A stretch of 64,000 nt of DNA from Candidatus Omnitrophota bacterium (lineage in GTDB: Bacteria > Omnitrophota > Gorgyraeia > Gygaellales > Profunditerraquicolaceae), in assembly GCA_963805065.1 (NCBI GenBank), contig CAWDSS010000010.1, positions 856,359-920,358 of the forward strand, in the 5' to 3' direction. Under the pieces are notes generated by a model. It ran no database searches. It was not told the origin of the DNA and saw only the letters and a list, made by a program, of their open reading frames with translations. Position numbers and translations under genes: made by a program. Below, piece after piece: positions 781 through 28,434 of this stretch. Positions within the stretch are counted from its first letter, which is position 1, and each line of letters starts with the position of its first letter.

Positions 781-1395
781 ATGAAAATAACTAGCCTAGT
801 CATGGTGTTAGCTGTCAGCTGTCAGCTGTCAGCTGTCAGCTGTTTTGCGCAAAGCCAGCCTCTTTTAATTGATGACTTTGAAGGAACTATTTCCGGAGGG
901 CCTGAAGGCACCGTGGATTTCGGTGCAGGAAATGGTTCATCGGTAGATGTAACAGCAGCAACAGATATTCAGCATTCCGGCAAGCAATCCATAAAAGTAA
1001 CATTTGATGCGGTCTCAGGCGGATATATATGGATTGCCCGTGGCTTTGGCTTGGATGCAAAAAACACCGCCTGGTTAATTAAACCAGAAAATATTCCCTG
1101 GAAAGACTATAGTGCAATATCCTTTTATATGTACGGGAACGATTCCAAAACGAAAGTCGCCTTTGACATTAAGGACAACGGAAATGAGATATGGCGTTAT
1201 GTTACAGAGGATAATTTTAAGGGCTGGAAGCAGATAGTTTGTCCGTTTAAAGATTTTGTTGTCCGTGATGACTGGCAGCCGGACAGCGCTGATAAAAATG
1301 CAGTATTAGATTTTCCTTTAAAAAGTTATCAATTTGAACCCAGGCCAGCAGCAAAAGGCACGCTTTACTTTGACCAGGTAGAATTAATAAAATGA
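781..1395 (+). CDS. secreted beta-sandwich protein (CIA30/CBM11-like carbohydrate-binding fold)
   Basis: SD AAGGAGG 6 nt upstream. N-terminal signal peptide ends CFA-Q. DDFEG...YFDQVEL pattern resembles CIA30/CBM-type domains. Confidence 0.5.
   Translation: MKITSLVMVLAVSCQLSAVSCFAQSQPLLIDDFEGTISGGPEGTVDFGAGNGSSVDVTAATDIQHSGKQSIKVTFDAVSGGYIWIARGFGLDAKNTAWLIKPENIPWKDYSAISFYMYGNDSKTKVAFDIKDNGNEIWRYVTEDNFKGWKQIVCPFKDFVVRDDWQPDSADKNAVLDFPLKSYQFEPRPAAKGTLYFDQVELIK
811..843 (+). repeat. (GCTGTCA)x4.7 perfect tandem heptamer array inside the signal-peptide coding region
   Basis: gctgtca repeated 4 times plus gctgt, read directly. Encodes AVSCQLSAVSC. Confidence 0.95.
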
Positions 1396-6818: not shown

Positions 6819-8324
6819 ATGAACGTTGCCAGCATTTTAGAGACAAAAGCAAAGGCACTCTCTGGTAAGCCCGCCATAATCTTTAAAGACCAGGCTATCA
6901 GCTTCGGGCAATTAAAAGAATATGCATTCAAGCTGGCAGACAGCCTTATAAAACTTGGGCTAAAAAAAGGCGATAAGGTAGCAATATACCTGCCCAATTG
7001 GCCGGAGTATATTTACAGCTATTTAGCTATCTGGTGCTGCGGTGCGACTGCAGTGCCGTTGGATTTCATGCTTACCGACGATGAATTAATGTCCTGTATT
7101 TCCCACTCCGAAGCAAAAATACTTATTGCAAAGCATAAAGCTACACTTTCCTTGCCAAAAATTAAACAAAATTGCCCTCATTTAGAAAAGATTATCTTAT
7201 GTCATGAAATTCAGGAAGGTTGCCAAAGTTTTGAGCAATTAATTGAAAAAGGGAACCCCAAAAATCCGGGAATTAAAATCCAGGATAAGGATTATGCGAT
7301 AATTTTCTACACCTCAGGCACTACTGGTAAGCCTAAGGGCGTACTTATTAACTATCTGCAATTAGATGCTCCGCCCAAGTCTATGGAGTTTTTTGTAGAC
7401 TTGAATTCCTCCGACATTACCTTATGCGCTTTGCCATTTTCTCATTTAGGCGGGCTTATTTACATTCAGAACTGTATTGCTTACGGCTTAACCATTGTTT
7501 TAATGGAACGTTTTATGCCTCTTGAATTCCTGAAAAACATTGAAACTTATAAAATAACCTGTTTCTGGATAGTCCCTTCCATGTATTATGCAGTTTTACA
7601 GTTAAAGGAGTTTGAAAGCTTTGATTTGTCGAGTTTGCGCTGGATTGTCACATTTGGAGCATCCAATTCTCCTGATGCCTTAAGAAGATTCCTGCAATTT
7701 TGCCCTAAGGCGCATCTTTTAAACGGCTGGGGCCTCACAGAGACTAATGCGCCCACCACGGTTTTACCTATGGGCTCAAAAAAAATAGAGAGCGTAGGCA
7801 GGCCTGCTCCCTGGATTGAGGTAAAGATATTTGACGATGCTGATAAAGAGGTAGTGAAAGGAAACATGGGAGAAGTGGTAGTAAAAAGCTGGGTGGTTAC
7901 CGATGGATATTACAAAGACACTGTATTAACTCAAGAGGTTTTGTGCAATGGCTATTTTCATACCGGAGATTTAGGCAGGTTTGACAGCGACGGCCATTTA
8001 TATATCGTGGGCAGGAAAAAAGAAATGATCAAGGTGGGTGGTGAAATTGTTTTTGAGCCGGAAGTAGAATCCGTAATCCATAAACATCCTGATGTCGCAG
8101 AAGTAGCTGTTGTGGGTGTGCCTGATAAATTAAGAGGAGAGGTGCCTAAGGCGTTTATAGTTTTTAAAGAAAATAAAAGTATCCCGGAAGAAGATTTACG
8201 TTTTTTCCTGCGCCAGCATTTAGCGCATTTTAAAATTCCCCATTATTTTGAGTTTAGAAGCTCACTCCCTAAGAACCGCATAGGCAAGATAGACAAAGAG
8301 TCCCTAAGGAGGGACACCCTGTAA
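6819..8324 (+). CDS. AMP-forming acyl-CoA synthetase/ligase
   Basis: YTSGTTGKPKGV (AMP-binding P-loop), TGD and GRKKEMIKVGG motifs. Confidence 0.85.
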   Translation: MNVASILETKAKALSGKPAIIFKDQAISFGQLKEYAFKLADSLIKLGLKKGDKVAIYLPNWPEYIYSYLAIWCCGATAVPLDFMLTDDELMSCISHSEAKILIAKHKATLSLPKIKQNCPHLEKIILCHEIQEGCQSFEQLIEKGNPKNPGIKIQDKDYAIIFYTSGTTGKPKGVLINYLQLDAPPKSMEFFVDLNSSDITLCALPFSHLGGLIYIQNCIAYGLTIVLMERFMPLEFLKNIETYKITCFWIVPSMYYAVLQLKEFESFDLSSLRWIVTFGASNSPDALRRFLQFCPKAHLLNGWGLTETNAPTTVLPMGSKKIESVGRPAPWIEVKIFDDADKEVVKGNMGEVVVKSWVVTDGYYKDTVLTQEVLCNGYFHTGDLGRFDSDGHLYIVGRKKEMIKVGGEIVFEPEVESVIHKHPDVAEVAVVGVPDKLRGEVPKAFIVFKENKSIPEEDLRFFLRQHLAHFKIPHYFEFRSSLPKNRIGKIDKESLRRDTL

Positions 8325-8367
8325 TTCAATCGAGGGACACCCTGTAATTCAAAGCTAAGGGTGTCCC
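8309..8367 (+). repeat. 21-nt direct duplication (GAGGGACACCCTGTAATTCAA x2, 23-nt period) followed by the complementary arm GGGTGTCCC
   Basis: Read directly. Copy 1 contains the acyl-CoA ligase stop codon. Either GGGACACCC copy can pair with GGGTGTCCC (8359..8367). Confidence 0.9.
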
Positions 8368-10059: not shown

Positions 10060-10145
10060 TGGTGCCGAAGAAGGGAGTTGAACCCTTACGAGCTTACGCT
10101 CATCGGTTTTTGAGACCGACATGTATGCCATTCCATCACTTCGGC
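10060..10145 (-). tRNA. tRNA-Leu(CAA), class II with long variable arm, CCA encoded
   Basis: The reverse complement folds as a cloverleaf: GCCGAAG acceptor, anticodon stem TCGGT/ACCGA, loop CTCAAAA, GGTTCAACTCC T-arm. Confidence 0.85.
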
Positions 10146-10300: not shown

Positions 10301-10376
10301 GGGGCTGTAGCTCAGCTGGGAGAGCACTTGCATGGCATGCAAGGGGTCAGGAGTTCAATCCTCCTCAGCTCCACCA
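10301..10376 (+). tRNA. tRNA-Ala(GGC), CCA encoded
   Basis: Aligns position by position with canonical tRNA-Ala. Has the G3:U70 identity pair, anticodon loop ATGGCAT and T-loop TTCAATC. Confidence 0.9.
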
Positions 10377-11256: not shown

Positions 11257-12349
11257 TATATGAGCTATCCATTTAAAGAAATCGAAGAAAAGTGGCAGGC
11301 ATATTGGGCAAAACAGGAAGCCTTTAGCGTAAGAGAAGACTCTGCCAGAAAGAAATTCTATCTTCTGGAAATGTTCCCCTATCCGTCGGGAAAAATTCAC
11401 ATGGGCCATGTGCGTAATTATACTATCGCAGATGTTGCAGCCAGATTTAAGATGATGCAGGGGTTTAATGTTCTGCATCCCATGGGTTTTGACGCATTTG
11501 GCCAGCCCGCAGAAAACGCCGCCATAAAAAATAAAACCAAGCCCGATATCTGGACGCATAAATGCATTAACTGGATGCAGCAGGAATTAAAGAAAATGGG
11601 GTTTTCCTATGATTGGGAAAGAGAAGTTTCTACTTGCGACAGCGATTATTATAAATGGAACCAGTGGATATTTTTAAAAATGTTTGAGCGGGGCCTGGCG
11701 TACAAAAAAGCCTCTTCAGTTAATTGGTGCCCTTCCTGCGAAACGACCTTAGCTAATGAAGAGGTAATTGATGGCGGCTGTTGGCGGTGCAAAACCAAGG
11801 TAGAGCAAAAGGATTTGGAACAATGGTATCTAAAGATTACTGAATATAAAGAGCGCTTGTTAGAAGATTTAAAACAACTTAAAGATTGGCCGGAGAAGGT
11901 ATTAGCAATGCAGACCAACTGGATCGGCAAAAGCCAGGGAGTCCAGATATTATTTTCGCCTGAAAGAGGCTAATGCCGTCATACCGGTTTTTACTACCCG
12001 GGTGGATACTATTTTTGGCGCAACTTATATTGTATTAGCTCCGGAGCATCCGTTAGTCAAAGAGATCATTAAAGATAAACCCCAGGAAAAAGAAGTATTA
12101 AAGTTTATCGATAAAGTTGCCAAAGAAAGCAAAGTTGTGCGCACGGCCTCGGATGTTAAAAAAGAGGGAGTTTTTACCGGCGGCTACGCAATAAATCCGG
12201 TTAATAATGAAGAAGTTCCTATCTGGGTTGCTGATTATGTATTAATGGAATATGGTACAGGCGCGATAATGGCTGTGCCCACGCATGACCAGCGGGATTT
12301 TCTGTTTGCCAAAGAACATAAACTGCCGATGCGTATTGTTATCCAGCCT

Positions 12350-12381
12350 CAGAACCCAGAACCCAGAACCCAGAACCCATT
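12350..12381 (+). repeat. (CAGAACC)x4 + CATT heptamer array, in-frame in leuS
   Basis: Read directly. Encodes [11 protein letters not shown]. Identical 32-mer at 27524..27555. Confidence 0.95.
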
Positions 12382-13179
12382 AACTGAAGCCTACGAAGGC
12401 GACGGCATTCAGGTTAATTCCGGACAATTCAACGGGCTTAACAATCAGCAAGCCAAGCTTAAAATTGCCGAATGGATGGAGAAAACCCATATTGGCAAAA
12501 TCCAAACTCATTGGCGTTTACGCGACTGGCTGATTTCCCGTCAGCGTTATTGGGGCACGCCTATCCCAATGATTTATTGTGCGAAATGCGGTATTGTGCC
12601 TGTGCCGTACAAAGACCTTCCGGTAGAATTACCCAAGGATGCCCCTTTTACAGGAGAAGGCGGCAGCCCATTAGCCAAGGTAAAGGAATTTGTTAATGTC
12701 AAATGCCCGAAATGTAATGGCCCAGCTCGCCGGGAAACCGATACCATGGCCACATTCTTTGATTCTTCCTGGTATTTCTTAAGATTTTGTTCTCCTAAGT
12801 TTAATTACGGGCCATTTGATCAAGGTAGCGCAAAATACTGGATGCCGGTTGATCAATATATTGGCGGTATTGAACATGCTATCCTGCATTTATTGTATTC
12901 ACGTTTTTTTACCAAATTTTTTAAAGACTTAGGGCTGATAGATTTTGATGAACCATTCAGGAAATTGTTAACGCAGGGCATGGTATTAAAAGACGGCGAA
13001 GTAATGTCTAAGTCACGCGGCAATATTGTTGACCCGGATTCCATTATTAAGAATTATGGCGCAGATACCTTAAGGTTATTTATTTTATTTGCCGCTCCTC
13101 CTGAAACTGAATTGGAGTGGGATGATCGTGGCATAGAGGGGGCTTTCAAATTCTTAAACCGGGTATGGCGCATTAAAGA

Positions 13180-13211
13180 AAGTCAAAACTTAAAAGCCAA
13201 AAGTCAAAACT
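13180..13211 (+). repeat. degenerate A-rich heptamer array (units TCAAAAC/TTAAAAG/CCAAAAG/TCAAAAC), in-frame in leuS
   Basis: AAGTCAAAACT recurs with a 21-nt period. About 25/30 nt identical to the lnt array at 27982. Confidence 0.8.
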
Positions 13212-13818
13212 CGAATGAAGACGGCTTAATTAAAACCAGAAAGAAAATGCATGAGACTATTAAAGAAGTCAGCGAAGATATAGAGAATTTTAAATTTAAT
13301 ACTGCTATAGCAAGCTTAATGGAATTAGTAAATACCATCTATCAGTTTGGGGCAGATGAGGAAATATTCTCCAAGTTAGTAATCATGCTTAGCCCCATCG
13401 TCCCGCATTTTGCCGAGGAATTATGGCAGAAGCTGGGTAACAAGGAAAGCATCATCCGGGCTCATTGGCCGCAATACGACCCCAAGATGTTGATTGAAGA
13501 AACAGTTACTATTGTAATCCAGATAAACGGCAAACTGCGCTCAAAAATTGATGTTCCCTCAGACATCTCCGAAGAAAAACTTAAGGAACTTGTGTTTGCC
13601 GATGAAAGATTACAGCCCTGGCTTCAGGGGAAACCCCTCAAAAATTTCATCGTAGTCCCCAAAAAACTGGTTAACATAGTAGTCTAAATCCTCTCCTTTG
13701 CCCGGATATTTGCATTTTCATCAGAGTTAGAAGTTTTTGTCCTGCTTAAGATTAATGCATTTTTGCTTAGCCTGCCTTTTGCGTATTTTAGCTTGTAAAA
13801 TTGAATCGGAGCGGGGGG

Positions 13819-24013: not shown

Positions 24014-26935
24014 ATGTTAAAATTAATCAGAAAAACAATCCTGGAAAACAAGCAGAAGCGTATCAGGCCAGGTTCCCCGGAGTAAATATTACTTTGCATC
24101 CGGAAATGCCCAATCCTTCCCTGAACAAGATGATAGAATTAAGCCGGATTGTGAATGCCATAAACGTGCTGGAACCTAAAATCAGCGCTCTTTCCGATGC
24201 CGAGCTTAAGGCTAAAACAGCCGGATTTAAAGAACATTGCCTAAAGAGGTCCCGGGAATACGAGCAGGAATTGCAGGAATTGGCAGAGTCGATGATGGCA
24301 GTGGCGATTCCTGAAGAGAAAGAGAAATTAAAGAAAAAAGTCAGGGATGTACGCAATAAAATCTTTGAGGAAATATTACCGGAAGCATTCGCGGTTGTAA
24401 GAGAAGCCTCCAGGCGCACAATTGGTCTTAGGCATTTTGATGTGCAGATGCTGGAGGGGTAGTCTTGCATGAGGGCAGGATTGCGGAGATGGCTACCGGT
24501 GAAGGAAAAACTTTGGTGGCAACTTTGCCTGCCTACCTTAATGCATTATTGGGGCAAGGTGTACATGTAGTTACAGTAAATGATTATCTTGCCCGGCGCG
24601 ACCGCGAGTGGATGGGCCCGATTTATGAATTTTTAGGGCTTTCGGTAGGGGTAATACAGCATGAAATGTCCGATGAGGAGAGAAAAATTGCCTATGCCTG
24701 CGATATAACCTACGGGACAAACAATGAATTCGGTTTTGATTATCTGCGCGACAATATGAAATACGGTTTGAATGATTTGGTGCAGAGGCCTTTCTATTAT
24801 GCAATCGTGGACGAAGTAGATTCCATACTTATTGATGAAGCGCGCACGCCGCTAATCATTTCAGGCCCCGCAGAGGAATCTACGGAAAAATATTACACCG
24901 CCAAGAAAATAGCAGACCAGCTAAGAGGAAGGCGGGTTACTGAAAGAGATCAAATCGATGCCAAATACAAGGGAGAAGATTTATCTAAGGGTTTTGATTA
25001 TCTTGCGGATGAGAAGGCCCAGACAGTAGCTTTAACTGAAGAGGGAGAAATAAAAGCAGCTAAGCTTTGGGGCGTAGAAAGTCTGCATCAGCTAGAGACC
25101 ATAGAATATCGTCACCATACTATCCAGGCCTTACGCGCAAAAGAATTTTTTGAACGGGATGTTGATTATGTGGTTAAAGATGGAGAGGTAATTATAGTCG
25201 ATGAATTTACCGGCCGCATGATGCCCGGAAGGCGCTGGTCAGACGGGTTGCATCAGGCAGTGGAGTCAAAAGAAGGCTTAAAAATCGAACGCGAAAATCA
25301 GACCTTAGCTACTATTACCTTCCAGAATTATTTCCGCATGTATGAAAAATTGGCAGGCATGACCGGAACTGCATTTACCGAGGCAAATGAATTTGAAAGC
25401 ATATACCAGCTGGATGTCGTGGTAGTGCCTACCAATAGGCCCTTAATACGTAACAATTAGCCCGGACAGGGTTTATAAAACAGAGAAGGAAAAATTTAAC
25501 GCTGTAGTAGAAGAAATTGCCGAACATTATAACAATGGAAAGCCCGTCTTAGTCGGTACCATTACTATTGATAAATCAGAGCGGCTTTCCGAAATGTTAA
25601 AAAGGCGCGGGATTACCGCATCAGGTGCTTAATGCCAAGTATCACGAGATGGAAGCGCAAATCGTTGCGCAGGCCGGCAGGTACAAAGCAGTAACTATTG
25701 CCACCAATATGGCAGGCCGCGGAACGGATATTTTATTAGGCGGCAACCCCGAATTCATTGCTAAAAACGTGATTAAACAAAAACTAAAACCAGAAGATCC
25801 TATTTATCAGGAGGAGTATAAAAAACTGCTGGATAAATACAAAAGAGAAACAGAAGAAGAACATAAAAAGGTTGTGGAGTTGGGAGGCTTGCATGTTTTG
25901 GGTACAGAACGTCATGAGGCCCGGCGTATTGATAATCAGCTACGCGGCCGGTCAGGCAGGCAGGGTGATCCTGGGTCATCCAGATTTTATGTAGCATTGG
26001 GAGATGATTTAATGCGTTTGTTTGGTTCTGACAGGCTGATCGGCATAATGGATAAGCTGGGATTAGAGGAAGGCCAGGTTATAGAGCATCCGTGGGTGGC
26101 GCGTTCCATAGAAATGGCGCAGAGGCGCGTAGAACAGCATAATTTTGAAATCAGAAAACAACTCCTGGAGTATGACAACGTTATGAATAAGCAGCGGGAA
26201 ATTATTTATGGCCAGCGTAGACAAACCCTGGAAGGGATTTCTTTAAAGGAAGAAGTAGAAGGGATAATTGAGAGGCTCATTGAAGACACCGTAGCAATTC
26301 ACATTCCAGATAACCAGGAGCCTGATGTGGCGGGTTTAGTAAGTATTATGAATTTGAAATTCGGCCTCGGGTTAGAAGTCCCCAAGATAGAAAATTTAAA
26401 CAAGGCCGATTTGAAAGATAAATTATCAGAAGATACGGTTAGCGCATATAACGAGAAAGAGAAGACAATCGGGACAGATTTGATGCGGCATCTTGAGCGC
26501 ATGGTATTTTTGCAGATTATTGACAGCAAATGGAAGGACCACCTTTATGCAATGGATAGCCTAAAAGAAGGGATAGGTCTACGCGCTTATGGGCAACGCG
26601 ATCCCTTGGTAGAATATAAACGTGAGGCATTTGAAATGTTCAGTCAGATGATTGCTTCTATAGAAGATGAGGCAGTGGAAGCGATATTTAAATTGCAGCC
26701 TCCCAAACAGGAAATATTCCGCGGCGTATTTAGCAGAGCTTCTCAGGAATTAATTCATCCCGAGGCAGTTAAATTCCAGAGGCCGCAAAACGAACCGGAA
26801 GAAATAACTGAAAGCCGGTTGCAGCCACAGTCAGCGCCTGCCTCTATCCCCCAACAATCCCATCCGAAGGTAGGAAGAAACGATCCTTGCCCCTGCGGCT
26901 CAGGCAAAAAATACAAAAAATGCTGCGGAAGATAA
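24014..26935 (+). pseudogene. secA: preprotein translocase ATPase SecA, split into four frames by single-base indels and with an anomalous 5' end
   Basis: Fragments 24094..24462, 24465..25460, ~25458..25632 and 25625..26935 together read as a complete SecA ([20 protein letters not shown] Walker A, C-terminal [14 protein letters not shown] zinc motif). Confidence 0.9.
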
Positions 26936-28434
26936 AACCATTAAAGTTTTGCATATTATCGGCGATCATCCTGGCTTTGCCATATGCGAACGCAAAGTTA
27001 TGGATTTTTGCCTGGTTTGGTTTCCTGCCTTTATTGGCTGCTCTTGCGGGTAAATCTAAACCTAAGGCATTCTTATTATCTTATCTTACGGGAATTATTT
27101 TCTGGACGCTGGTTATTTACTGGTTAGTGCATGTTACATTGCCAGGCACAATTATTCTCATTTTATATTTGGCATTATATTTTGGGATATTTGGCGTTTT
27201 AGTTACGAGCATCGAGCATCGAGCATCGAGCATCCTATTTTTGATTCCAGCCATATGGGTTTTGCTGGAATACGCGCGTTCACATCTATTGACGGGTTTT
27301 CCCTGGGCGCTTTTAGCTTATTCCCAGTATGAGAATTTGCCCATTATACAGATCGCAGATATAACGGGAGCGTGGGGAGTGTCGTTTGTGGTGATGTTAG
27401 TAAATACAACCGTTTATGGGGTTCTAGGTTCTAGGTTCTCGGTTCTAGGAAAAATCAAGAAATGCATACCTGTTTTATTATGTATTATTGTTGTACTTGG
27501 TTATGGATATTATAAGCTTTTGCCAGAACCCAGAACCCAGAACCCAGAACCCATTCGTATATCCGTCATTCAAGGAAACATCCCCCAGGAATTAAAATGG
27601 GACTCTTCCGCCAGGCAATATATTTTAAGCCAATACGCAAGATTAACAAGACAGGCAGCCAAAGACCATCCCGGCCTGATTATTTGGCCGGAAGCAGCCA
27701 GCCCCGGGTTATTAGGAGAAGATGATGCAGTTTTTGAAGAAATTGATTCTTTGGCAAGGAATGTCAAGGTGCCGTTACTCGTCGGAACAGTAGCCAAAGA
27801 CGGCAAGGAATATTTTAACAGCGCCATATTGATTAATCCAAGCGGTGAAATTGCCGCCCGTTACAATAAATTACACCTTGTCCCCTTCGGAGAATACATA
27901 CCTTTAAAGAAATACCTTCCGTTTCTGGAGACTATAGTTCCAATAGGAGATATCACAAGGGGTAAGGAATATACAATATTCCAAAACTTAAAACCTAAAA
28001 CGCAAAACGCGGAAAAATTTGCGGTTTTAATTTGCTTTGAAGATTTATTCCCTGAGCTTTCACGTAAGTTTATTCAGGGGGGGGCTCAATTTTTAGTTAA
28101 TATAACTAATGATGCATGGTATAAGGAAACCTCAGCACCTTATCAACATTTACAGGCATCGGTATTCAGGGCTGTGGAAAATCGCGTATTCTTAGTGCGC
28201 GCTGCCAATACAGGCATTTCCGGGTTTATTGCGCCTAGCGGAAGAATCGTATCTATTGTGCACGGCAAAAGGGACAGAGAAATATTTACCGATGGATACG
28301 AAACCCTGGAGATTCCGCTTCCTATTCCTAAGTCAAGCCCAACTTTTTATAACCGCTGTGGTGATTATTTTGTGTTGATTTGCTTTTTTACTTTTACCTT
28401 TTTGCTTTTACCTTTTAACTTTTTAAAAGATTAA
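26920..28434 (+). CDS. lnt: apolipoprotein N-acyltransferase
   Basis: Multi-TM N-terminal half plus CN-hydrolase domain (WPE, LICFE catalytic Cys, NITNDAW). Confidence 0.85.
27207..27234 (+). repeat. (GAGCATC)x4 perfect heptamer array, in-frame in lnt
   Basis: Read directly. Encodes SIEHRASSI. Confidence 0.95.
27420..27449 (+). repeat. (GGTTCTA)x4 heptamer array (third unit GGTTCTC), in-frame in lnt
   Basis: Read directly. GGTTCTN is the reverse complement of NAGAACC. Encodes [10 protein letters not shown]. Confidence 0.95.
27524..27555 (+). repeat. (CAGAACC)x4 + CATT heptamer array, in-frame in lnt
   Basis: Identical 32-mer to leuS 12350..12381. Encodes [10 protein letters not shown]. Confidence 0.95.
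27982..28016 (+). repeat. degenerate A-rich heptamer array (CAAAACT TAAAACC TAAAACG CAAAACG CGGAAAA), in-frame in lnt
   Basis: Read directly. Homologous to leuS 13180..13211. Encodes [12 protein letters not shown]. Confidence 0.8.
28383..28425 (+). repeat. degenerate T-rich heptamer array (CTTTTAC CTTTTTG CTTTTAC CTTTTAA CTTTTTA) at the lnt 3' end
   Basis: Read directly. Its reverse complement is NNAAAAG, the same family as the A-rich arrays. Encodes [12 protein letters not shown]. Confidence 0.8.

Follow-up and report, generated by a model that had tools for sequence, protein, structure and literature searches.

Two essential genes of a Candidatus Omnitrophota bacterium, leuS (leucyl-tRNA synthetase) and lnt (apolipoprotein N-acyltransferase), carry in-frame tandem arrays of seven-nucleotide units, one of which is identical in the two genes over 32 nt. 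Both lie in a 64-kb stretch of DNA (assembly GCA_963805065.1, contig CAWDSS010000010.1, positions 856,359 to 920,358 of the forward strand), hereafter the window, in which positions are counted from the first letter. We consider it probable that these arrays are heptanucleotide microsatellites of the class described as short tandemly repeated repetitive (STRR) sequences or long simple sequence repeats (LSSR 5-11), which change length by slippage in steps of three units, exchange units with one another and occupy protein loops that are constrained in length and free in sequence. The observation from which the analysis started, a prediction made from the letters of the window, is correct and highly non-random. 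The unprecedented status suggested for it is not supported, and its added value is a clean comparative system for the evolution of heptamer arrays.

Heptamer arrays in leuS and lnt

The leuS gene occupies 11260-13687 on the forward strand and is represented in the assembly by two open reading frames (ORFs), 11260-11973 and 12002-13687. The C-terminal ORF contains the editing, catalytic and anticodon-binding domains recognized by Pfam and matches the leucyl-tRNA synthetase (LeuRS) of T. thermophilus (PDB 1H3N, E = 1.8e-168). The lnt gene (26887-28434, forward strand) encodes LNT_N and CN_hydrolase domains (Pfam), matches E. coli Lnt (PDB 5VRG, E = 7e-45) and holds five heptamer arrays.

The same 32 nt, CAGAACCCAGAACCCAGAACCCAGAACCCATT, are found at 12350-12381 in leuS and at 27524-27555 in lnt, with no third match in the 64-kb window even when up to three mismatches are allowed, and none in 100 shuffles. 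The leuS copy starts on the first base of a codon (position 12350, ORF starting at 12002) and the lnt copy on the second (position 27524, ORF starting at 26887), so that the two are read in differing codon phases and encode different peptides. Both copies and their translations bear out the original prediction on this point, as well as its statement that the CAGAACC unit is free of stop codons in all three forward frames. In leuS the array (site 1) is (CAGAACC)x4.3 followed by TT (12350-12381, forward strand) and lies in frame in a variable loop of the editing domain, and in lnt it is (CCAGAAC)x4.4 followed by TT (site 3; 27523-27555, forward strand), placed at the start of the periplasmic nitrilase domain.

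The two 32-mers are identical in the phase at which the array starts, in the phase at which it ends and in the 2 nt past it, and neither conserved flanks nor target duplications are found around either array. The agreement of both phases and of the two extra bases would favour copying over independent growth. Most likely, (CAGAACC)4 in leuS was copied from the lnt-type array or from another member of the family, lnt or such a member being the likelier source because the lnt unit resembles the units of its orthologues. The identity between leuS and lnt is one case of a general tendency of arrays in one genome or locus to share units, for which the comparative evidence is given below.

The second, A-rich array that had been noted in both genes is likewise real. 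The segments 13184-13210 (CAAAACTTAAAAGCCAAAAGTCAAAAC) and 27982-28008 (CAAAACTTAAAACCTAAAACGCAAAAC) are identical at 23 of 27 nt, and the degenerate pattern common to them has just those two matches in the window. The leuS copy (site 2; 13179-13211, forward strand) is a degenerate YAAAASN array (CAAAACT TAAAAGC CAAAAGT CAAAACT) that encodes SQNLKAKSQN in the linker joining the catalytic and anticodon-binding domains (according to Pfam, tRNA-synt_1 extends to aa 373 and Anticodon_1 starts at aa 414), and the lnt copy (site 4; 27982-28010, forward strand) is a degenerate YAAAACN array that encodes QNLKPKTQN in a loop of the nitrilase domain. The two array types do follow one another in the same order and orientation in both genes, as had been seen, but this carries no weight, because two arrays per gene are being compared and both necessarily lie on the coding strand.

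The window contains four exact tandem arrays of at least three copies at period 7 and none at periods 5, 6 or 8-15, and Tandem Repeats Finder (TRF) adds further, imperfect period-7 arrays to the four exact ones. Shuffled sequences gave 0 matches, which places these tandem heptamers beyond chance. Each of the eight arrays lies within an ORF and in frame, a location that discriminates weakly given that the window is almost wholly coding, and the intergenic predominance that is a trait of STRR and of Xanthomonas and Nostoc arrays is not seen in the window. According to TRF, the arrays hold 4.1-4.4 copies, with 5.4-5.6 in two of them. Five are in lnt and two in leuS, and a single family, YARAACN, accounts for five of the eight. 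Unit families are dispersed (counts for this genome being those of the 64-kb window), with CAGAACC in leuS and lnt, TAGAACC inverted in lnt, and YAAAACN in leuS and lnt.

The remaining lnt arrays, all on the forward strand, are (CGAGCAT)x4.1 at site 1 (27206-27234), encoding SIEHRASSI in a loop between transmembrane helices; (GGTTCTA)x4.3 at site 2 (27420-27449), which is nearly the reverse complement of CAGAACC; and an imperfect (TTTTACC)x5.6 at the C terminus (28386-28423), in the last transmembrane segment. Outside these two genes, a CBM_11 protein (ORF 781-1395) carries (TGTCAGC)x5.4, one of the four exact arrays, in its N-terminal region (806-843, forward strand; peptide LAVSCQLSAVSCF). 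A/C-rich orientations of the arrays fall in hydrophilic loops, and G/T-rich orientations fall beside membrane helices or in a signal peptide.

The GGTTCTA array at lnt site 2 lies 74 nt upstream of the CCAGAAC array at site 3, and together they form an imperfect inverted repeat (27405-27570) in which four 6-bp blocks surround 74 nt encoding a transmembrane helix. The RNA hairpin predicted for sites 2 and 3 has a minimum free energy (MFE) of -48.1 kcal/mol, compared with -33.1 +/- 3.7 kcal/mol for shuffles (z = -4.1), and across Lnt orthologues the units of these two sites tend to be reverse complements of one another. A scan of the window with Rfam returned two tRNAs and no RNA family at the arrays. 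Judging from this folding prediction, the lnt hairpin could be a signal, and quasi-palindrome template switching could equally give the same outcome.

Orthologues carry other units in the same loops

Comparisons were made with about 120 Omnitrophota orthologues of Lnt (121 in the run of the peptide decoder described below) and with 17 LeuS orthologues, the closest relatives found being 77% identical in LeuS and 71% identical in Lnt. When Lnt is aligned with 13 orthologues, each array site proves to be a variable loop, and the orthologous loops show a 7-residue periodicity of their own in different sequences. In the lnt DNA of two orthologous loci, the four sites known from the window are again occupied by heptamer arrays, built from other units, namely GGTCATR, CCACCAC x4, and (ATTCTCG)x4 followed by (AGCATCS)x4 in L084, and GAACTCC, GGTTAGC, GCACCCA and CAAATCN x9 in L085. 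In the 71%-identical Lnt (L082), the window's site-4 array persists in decayed form. The site-3 arrays of lnt are built from GAACCCA in the window and from GCACCCA in L085, units that are one base apart in every copy, which is concerted evolution.

Units and peptides also reappear at other positions. The site-1 unit of the window's lnt, CGAGCAT, is present at lnt site 4 of L084, and the site-1 peptide SIEHRASSI is present in two further proteins (P0009 and P0012). Similarly, AGCTGTC, the unit of the array at 806, is found at lnt site 2 of the orthologue P0058. In LeuS, other heptamer units occupy site 1 in L002, L010 and L015, and other heptamer arrays occupy site 2 in L015 and L006.

A peptide decoder, which accepted a 10-residue stretch if at least 9 residues matched a tandem heptamer read in three frames, identified 175 arrays in 85 of the 121 Lnt orthologues, concentrated at five sites, and 0 in shuffled ORFs of the window. 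Residue identity in the Lnt loops is 0.14-0.25 at a lag of 7 residues and 0.03-0.13 at other lags. Orthologues do not conserve the same peptides with unrelated codon usage, a pattern named at the outset as a mark of selection on the protein alone; their peptides differ, and each comes from DNA with a 7-nt period.

Period 7 also dominates in larger samples of DNA. Over 404 kb, TRF reported 19 arrays of period 7 and 3 of all other periods together. In 425 kb of Omnitrophota loci, exact period-7 runs numbered 46, 5, 6 and 1 at two, three, four and five copies, respectively, without a smooth decay, and no run of at least three copies was found at any other period. The array density in Omnitrophota was 4.2 per 100 kb (peptide decoder); a breakdown by phylum is unusable for the other phyla, since repeat-selected metagenome loci (L166-L205) were included in it.

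Arrays were also observed around leuS in more distant genomes. The densest cluster found is in a 4.5-kb contig labelled Nitrospinota (L015), whose LeuS is 56% identical to that of the window. It holds about five arrays in or just after leuS (1204-2671), with the units CGAATCC, AAGACAG, CAGAAGC, AAGATGC and TTCTTAC, and two of them are at the window's LeuS sites. Arrays of 4-5.6 copies are common in the leuS surroundings of other phyla (L026, L034, L036, L062 and L078; Desulfobacterota, Syntrophorhabdus and Dialister), where pairs of the same unit in opposite orientation are frequent, for example AATGCAA and ATTTTGC 20 nt apart in L062, and TCTATCA and TAGATGA 2.9 kb apart in L078. The unit GAACTCC recurs in L085, L026, L027 and L034.

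A scan of metagenomes for (CAGAACC)4 returned more than 120 contigs (L086-L205) with G+C contents of 0.38-0.69. Several matches fall within long ORFs or immediately precede start codons (L163 and L140 are examples), some have an AAACCCT context like that of eukaryotic telomeres, and many are at contig ends, consistent with assembly breaks at the repeat. The scan establishes only that (CAGAACC)4 is widespread in metagenomes, as it has no baseline from which an enrichment could be inferred.

Loop and array lengths

Across orthologues the array-bearing loops of Lnt differ in length by steps of 7 aa, that is, by 21 nt or three units. The site-1 loop measures 14, 21 (60 of 93 orthologues) or 28 aa, and the site-4 loop 8-9, 15 (the mode), 22-23 or 29-30 aa. 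Two proteins of one 90%-identity cluster (P0124 and P0129) are 7 aa apart at the N-terminal array, and their DNA differs by an exact 21-nt indel at the array, the rest being near-identical. Copy number therefore varies between the related strains of this cluster. The variation among relatives keeps the frame, in 7-aa steps, and the arrays are hosted by LeuS and Lnt, unlike phase variation, in which frame-shifting changes of copy number turn a dispensable, usually surface, gene on and off.

The arrays themselves are of narrow size. The 42 arrays counted in 81 loci have a median length of 31 nt; 41 of them fall in the range 24-39 nt, and the remaining one reaches 51 nt. Alignments with E. coli Lnt and T. 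thermophilus LeuRS show the array-bearing loops to be of approximately native length, which indicates that arrays replaced loop sequence over time and were not simply added to it. The original prediction had placed both leuS arrays in linkers of native length. This holds for site 1, where the loop is 13 aa in the window and 12 aa in array-less bacteria, while the site-2 segment of the window exceeds that of its nearest relatives by about 9 aa, though it is similar in length to that of other bacteria. A net insertion of 7 aa at leuS site 1 was considered and rejected on the same comparison of 13 with 12 aa.

The same loops also hold inserts of another kind. G+C-rich palindromes occur in frame, often within heptamer arrays, at LeuS site 1 (L004, 3185-3255) and at lnt site 4 (L209, 1575-1650, and L210, 1575-1625). 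An example is CCTGCCTGCCCGGCAGGCAGG, which encodes P-A-C-P-A-G-R-Q-A; peptide variants include LPDRQAG and PCLAGRQA, and peptides of this type are found in P0018, P0051, P0070, P0077 and P0030. Although L209 and L210 belong to one 90%-identity cluster, they have different palindromes at one place. From their sequences, these palindromic inserts look like a second class of tiny hairpin elements landing in these loops.

Units are shared within proteins and loci

Arrays at different sites of one protein resemble one another more than arrays of different proteins do. Identical units at different sites make up 4.7% of pairs within one Lnt protein and 0.42% of pairs between proteins, and units with at most one mismatch make up 9.5% and 3.2%, respectively (Fisher p = 3.6e-4). 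In site-matched permutations, the direct sharing between Lnt sites 1 and 4 was reached in 0 of 5000 (p < 0.0002), the inverted sharing between sites 2 and 3 gave p = 0.002, and the direct sharing between the N-terminal site and site 2 gave p = 0.05. At the nucleotide level, counting units with at most one mismatch on either strand, 15 of 43 pairs within a locus and 45 of 818 pairs between loci share a unit (p = 2.6e-8). The result holds when the window is left out (12 of 33 within loci). Cases of sharing within a locus include Desulfobacterota and one Dialister genome, which means that unit sharing is not confined to Omnitrophota.

Independent contigs and frameshifts

Both 32-mer arrays can be followed into Logan contigs of run ERR10755942, and two of these contigs (L001 and L208) begin exactly within the (GAACCCA)4 array. 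L001, which begins in lnt, matches the window without a difference over 2065 nt (100% identity). L208 begins in leuS, and 5 substitutions in 6452 nt separate it from the window, as a result of which it is taken to represent a separate strain or dataset. A start inside the array is the expected behaviour of a k-mer graph at a 32-mer common to two loci, and shared 32-mers of this kind interrupt short-read assemblies inside genes.

The assembly also contains frameshifts. The leuS gene is split by a 1-nt indel near 11947-11955, in 'gatattatttt', and secA is broken into four frame segments (frames 1, 3, 1 and 2) by shifts at about 24455, 25460 and 25612 that adjoin short runs, such as GGGG and CCC. 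No record of a truncated LeuS N-terminal ORF was found in public assemblies. Errors of the consensus (indels) are the probable origin of the shifts in both genes, ahead of genuine pseudogenization or recoding. Array slippage was rejected as their cause, since the shifts are in short homopolymer or AT runs, away from the arrays.

Origin of the arrays

The original prediction offered three explanations for the shared arrays, namely a spreading microsatellite tolerated only in linkers, gene conversion between arrays, and a recognition signal at the level of DNA or RNA. The first two fit the comparative data. The arrays are in variable loops of approximately native length that change by 7 aa, in line with a tolerated microsatellite, and arrays of the same gene or locus share units far more than arrays of different genomes, in line with conversion. 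The recognition signal finds little support, since units differ between orthologues and among the arrays of the window, and many arrays are decaying.

In the reading that we favour, replication slippage in a 7-nt register would both generate the arrays and homogenize them. Because a coding sequence stays in frame only when units are gained or lost by threes, coding arrays would then have either three units added to a basal one (about 4.3 units in all, about 30 nt, 10 aa) or six. Short-patch templated exchange would carry a unit to other arrays of the same genome, either through ectopic gene conversion or through template switching, the latter including quasi-palindrome correction for inverted pairs. 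Selection would act as a filter, admitting stop-free units and sorting A/C-rich units to hydrophilic loops and G/T-rich units to membrane helices or the signal peptide. A dedicated function for the arrays would not be required.

Several points weigh against this combination of slippage, exchange and filtering. Stepwise growth from one to four units passes through frameshifted intermediates in essential genes, and intermediates of two or three units were not seen, which suggests that several units are gained per event or that ready-made arrays arrive by copying. The preference for four units extends to the intergenic arrays of Xanthomonas and Geobacter, so that filtering by frame is not the whole explanation, and slippage leaves the period of 7 unexplained. 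Lnt site 3 is 16-17 aa long in 20 of 21 orthologues with widely different units, and this near-fixed length demands length-neutral homogenization rather than expansion and contraction. Furthermore, the protein-level tests of sharing ignore the kinship between orthologues, and with a G+C-matched control (26 of 161, p = 0.0098) the excess of sharing at the nucleotide level shrinks to an odds ratio of 2.8.

Some of these features would be expected of an active process of templated writing or copying, in which about 30 nt are overwritten in place with about four genome-specific heptamers and the survivors are those in tolerant loops; the writer would be a reverse transcriptase, an integrase-like enzyme or a repair-associated process. 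Such a process would account for the uniform size of the arrays, 41 of 42 of which measure 24-39 nt (about 4-5 units), and for the absence of the geometrically declining two- and three-copy arrays that stepwise growth should leave. It would likewise account for the four-unit preference also present in intergenic DNA of other bacteria and phyla, and for loops at leuS site 1 and at sites 1 and 3 of lnt that hold arrays without having become longer or shorter overall. It would also suit the identical boundaries of the leuS and lnt arrays together with the 2 nt beyond them, the membership of five of the eight window arrays in YARAACN, and the occurrence of common units in both orientations within a genome. 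We nevertheless regard it as unlikely. At least three unrelated units (AGCTGTC, CGAGCAT and YARAACN), plus TTTTACC, are present in 64 kb, which no single template explains; arrays at orthologous positions are retained and erode through point mutations, an example being lnt site 4 of the window and of L082; 21-nt indels occur inside existing arrays; and neither a candidate enzyme nor conserved flanks or target duplications at the arrays were identified. That the arrays are functional cis-elements, be it as binding sites for regulators, as proposed for the Geobacter and TAACTGA repeats, or as structural signals such as the lnt hairpin, is in our estimation quite improbable. The folding of the inverted lnt arrays into a long interrupted helix (z = -4.1), the greater complementarity of site-2 and site-3 units within than between proteins (p = 0.002), the recurrence of one unit in unrelated genes and the annotation of similar arrays as regulatory by earlier authors (PMC2700814 and PMC4679880) all point in that direction. 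On the other hand, units differ from orthologue to orthologue and from array to array in one genome, leaving no conserved recognition sequence, many arrays are degenerate, and their positions follow the tolerance of protein loops rather than features of the transcript. Moreover, template switching at quasi-palindromes yields inverted complementarity without any function.

Selection on the encoded peptides, with flexible linkers rich in Pro, Glu, Thr and Gln as its object and the DNA period as a by-product, would explain why soluble loops have hydrophilic, linker-like peptides and membrane segments have hydrophobic ones beside them, and why loop length is conserved. It has very little probability, and is effectively excluded, because leuS and lnt translate identical DNA in different frames into different peptides, orthologues have unrelated peptides at one site that are each fitted by a 7-nt DNA period, and the units are identical at the nucleotide level, without synonymous variation, whereas selection at the level of codons cannot yield a period of 7 nt. 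An artefact of assembly or sequencing, such as a chimeric consensus, is likewise effectively excluded, and its probability is negligible. The frameshifts in leuS and secA do point to indel errors in this assembly, but the arrays are in frame, both of them are present in independent Logan contigs of ERR10755942, one of which has 5 single-nucleotide differences from the window, and homologous arrays exist in many independently assembled genomes. The mis-assembly that the original prediction had allowed for is thus contradicted by independent contigs and by orthologous genomes alike.

Relation to known heptamer repeats

Phase-variable contingency loci, such as those of Haemophilus and Neisseria, are switches in which simple sequence repeats (SSRs) mediate frameshifts. 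Like them, the arrays described here put inside a coding region a tandem repeat with a unit length indivisible by three and a presumed tendency to slip. Unlike them, they are in essential housekeeping hosts, in loops in the middle of the gene, and change in frame-keeping steps of 21 nt, and no on/off switching was seen.

The idea that shared heptamer arrays in housekeeping ORFs are new does not survive comparison with Geobacter metallireducens. Aklujkar et al. 2009 (PMC2700814) describe 49 four-heptamer elements, Gmet_H401-H449, with the unit GGGACCG, of which about 17-20 are inside genes according to Table S4, including cobS, cbiD (2), cobQ (3), sucB (3), lpdA and the Ddl-FtsQ linker. The two systems share arrays of about four tandem heptamers, near-identical dispersed copies, several arrays per gene, and a location in housekeeping enzymes and linkers. 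The Geobacter elements are found between as well as within genes, are annotated as putative regulatory RNA elements, and belong to one dominant family of 49 copies with a G+C-rich unit (GGGACCG/GGACCGG), whereas several A/C-rich families are present here, with 2-3 copies of each visible in 64 kb. The portions of that paper considered here make no mention of occupancy of the same loop in orthologues, of 7-aa steps or of co-evolution of units.

More broadly, heptamers are over-represented among long bacterial SSRs and form their most abundant class, an abundance for which polymerase slippage in a 7-nt register has been proposed (Mrazek 2007, as cited in PMC4679880 and, for the abundance, PMC4692102). 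The arrays of the window resemble STRR and LSSR 5-11 in being tandem heptamers, with several unit families per genome and dispersed copies. STRR arrays are mainly intergenic, in contrast to the eight window arrays, all of which are inside ORFs and in frame. The GGGNATC arrays of Xanthomonas and Nostoc, too, favour four units; they are found mainly between genes and less than expected in coding DNA (PMC4692102). The TAACTGA direct repeats of Beggiatoaceae and cyanobacteria are dispersed in 2-6 copies (MacGregor 2015, PMC4679880). They contain stops in all forward frames and lie mostly just upstream of start codons, where a translational role has been proposed; a few are within ORFs, at peripheral positions of the protein, and they are without a known mechanism of spreading (PMC4679880). 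The arrays described here differ in being stop-free and internal to conserved proteins. Our literature search found no report of heptamer arrays in Omnitrophota and, in the parts of the heptamer-repeat literature it covered, no description of homologous-site occupancy, 7-residue steps or unit co-evolution.

Heptanucleotides are the commonest long simple repeats in bacteria, and their period of 7, their four-unit size and their spread are still to be explained. The Lnt and LeuS loops of Omnitrophota offer a natural data set for this, with hundreds of orthologues and arrays at fixed, alignable positions, in which gain, loss, 21-nt steps, concerted changes of units and exchange between arrays can be counted. 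They also illustrate that a frame-breaking repeat can be carried safely in essential genes, since only changes of three units survive, and that heptamer arrays steadily generate 7-residue indels and turn over the sequence of protein loops.

Other features of the window

Elsewhere in the window, a perfect 23-nt tandem duplication (GAGGGACACCCTGTAATTCAATC x1.9, 8309-8352) extends over the end of ORF 6819-8324 and the adjoining intergenic DNA. After the duplication, GGGTGTCCCC can pair with its GGGACACCC, an arrangement that resembles a terminator. Two tRNA genes, tRNA-Leu(CAA) at 10060-10145 on the reverse strand and tRNA-Ala(GGC) at 10301-10376 on the forward strand, are just upstream of the leuS region. 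Across positions 1-64000, nearly all long ORFs are on the forward strand and the cumulative GC skew climbs steadily, which together indicate that the window lies within one replichore with strongly co-oriented genes.

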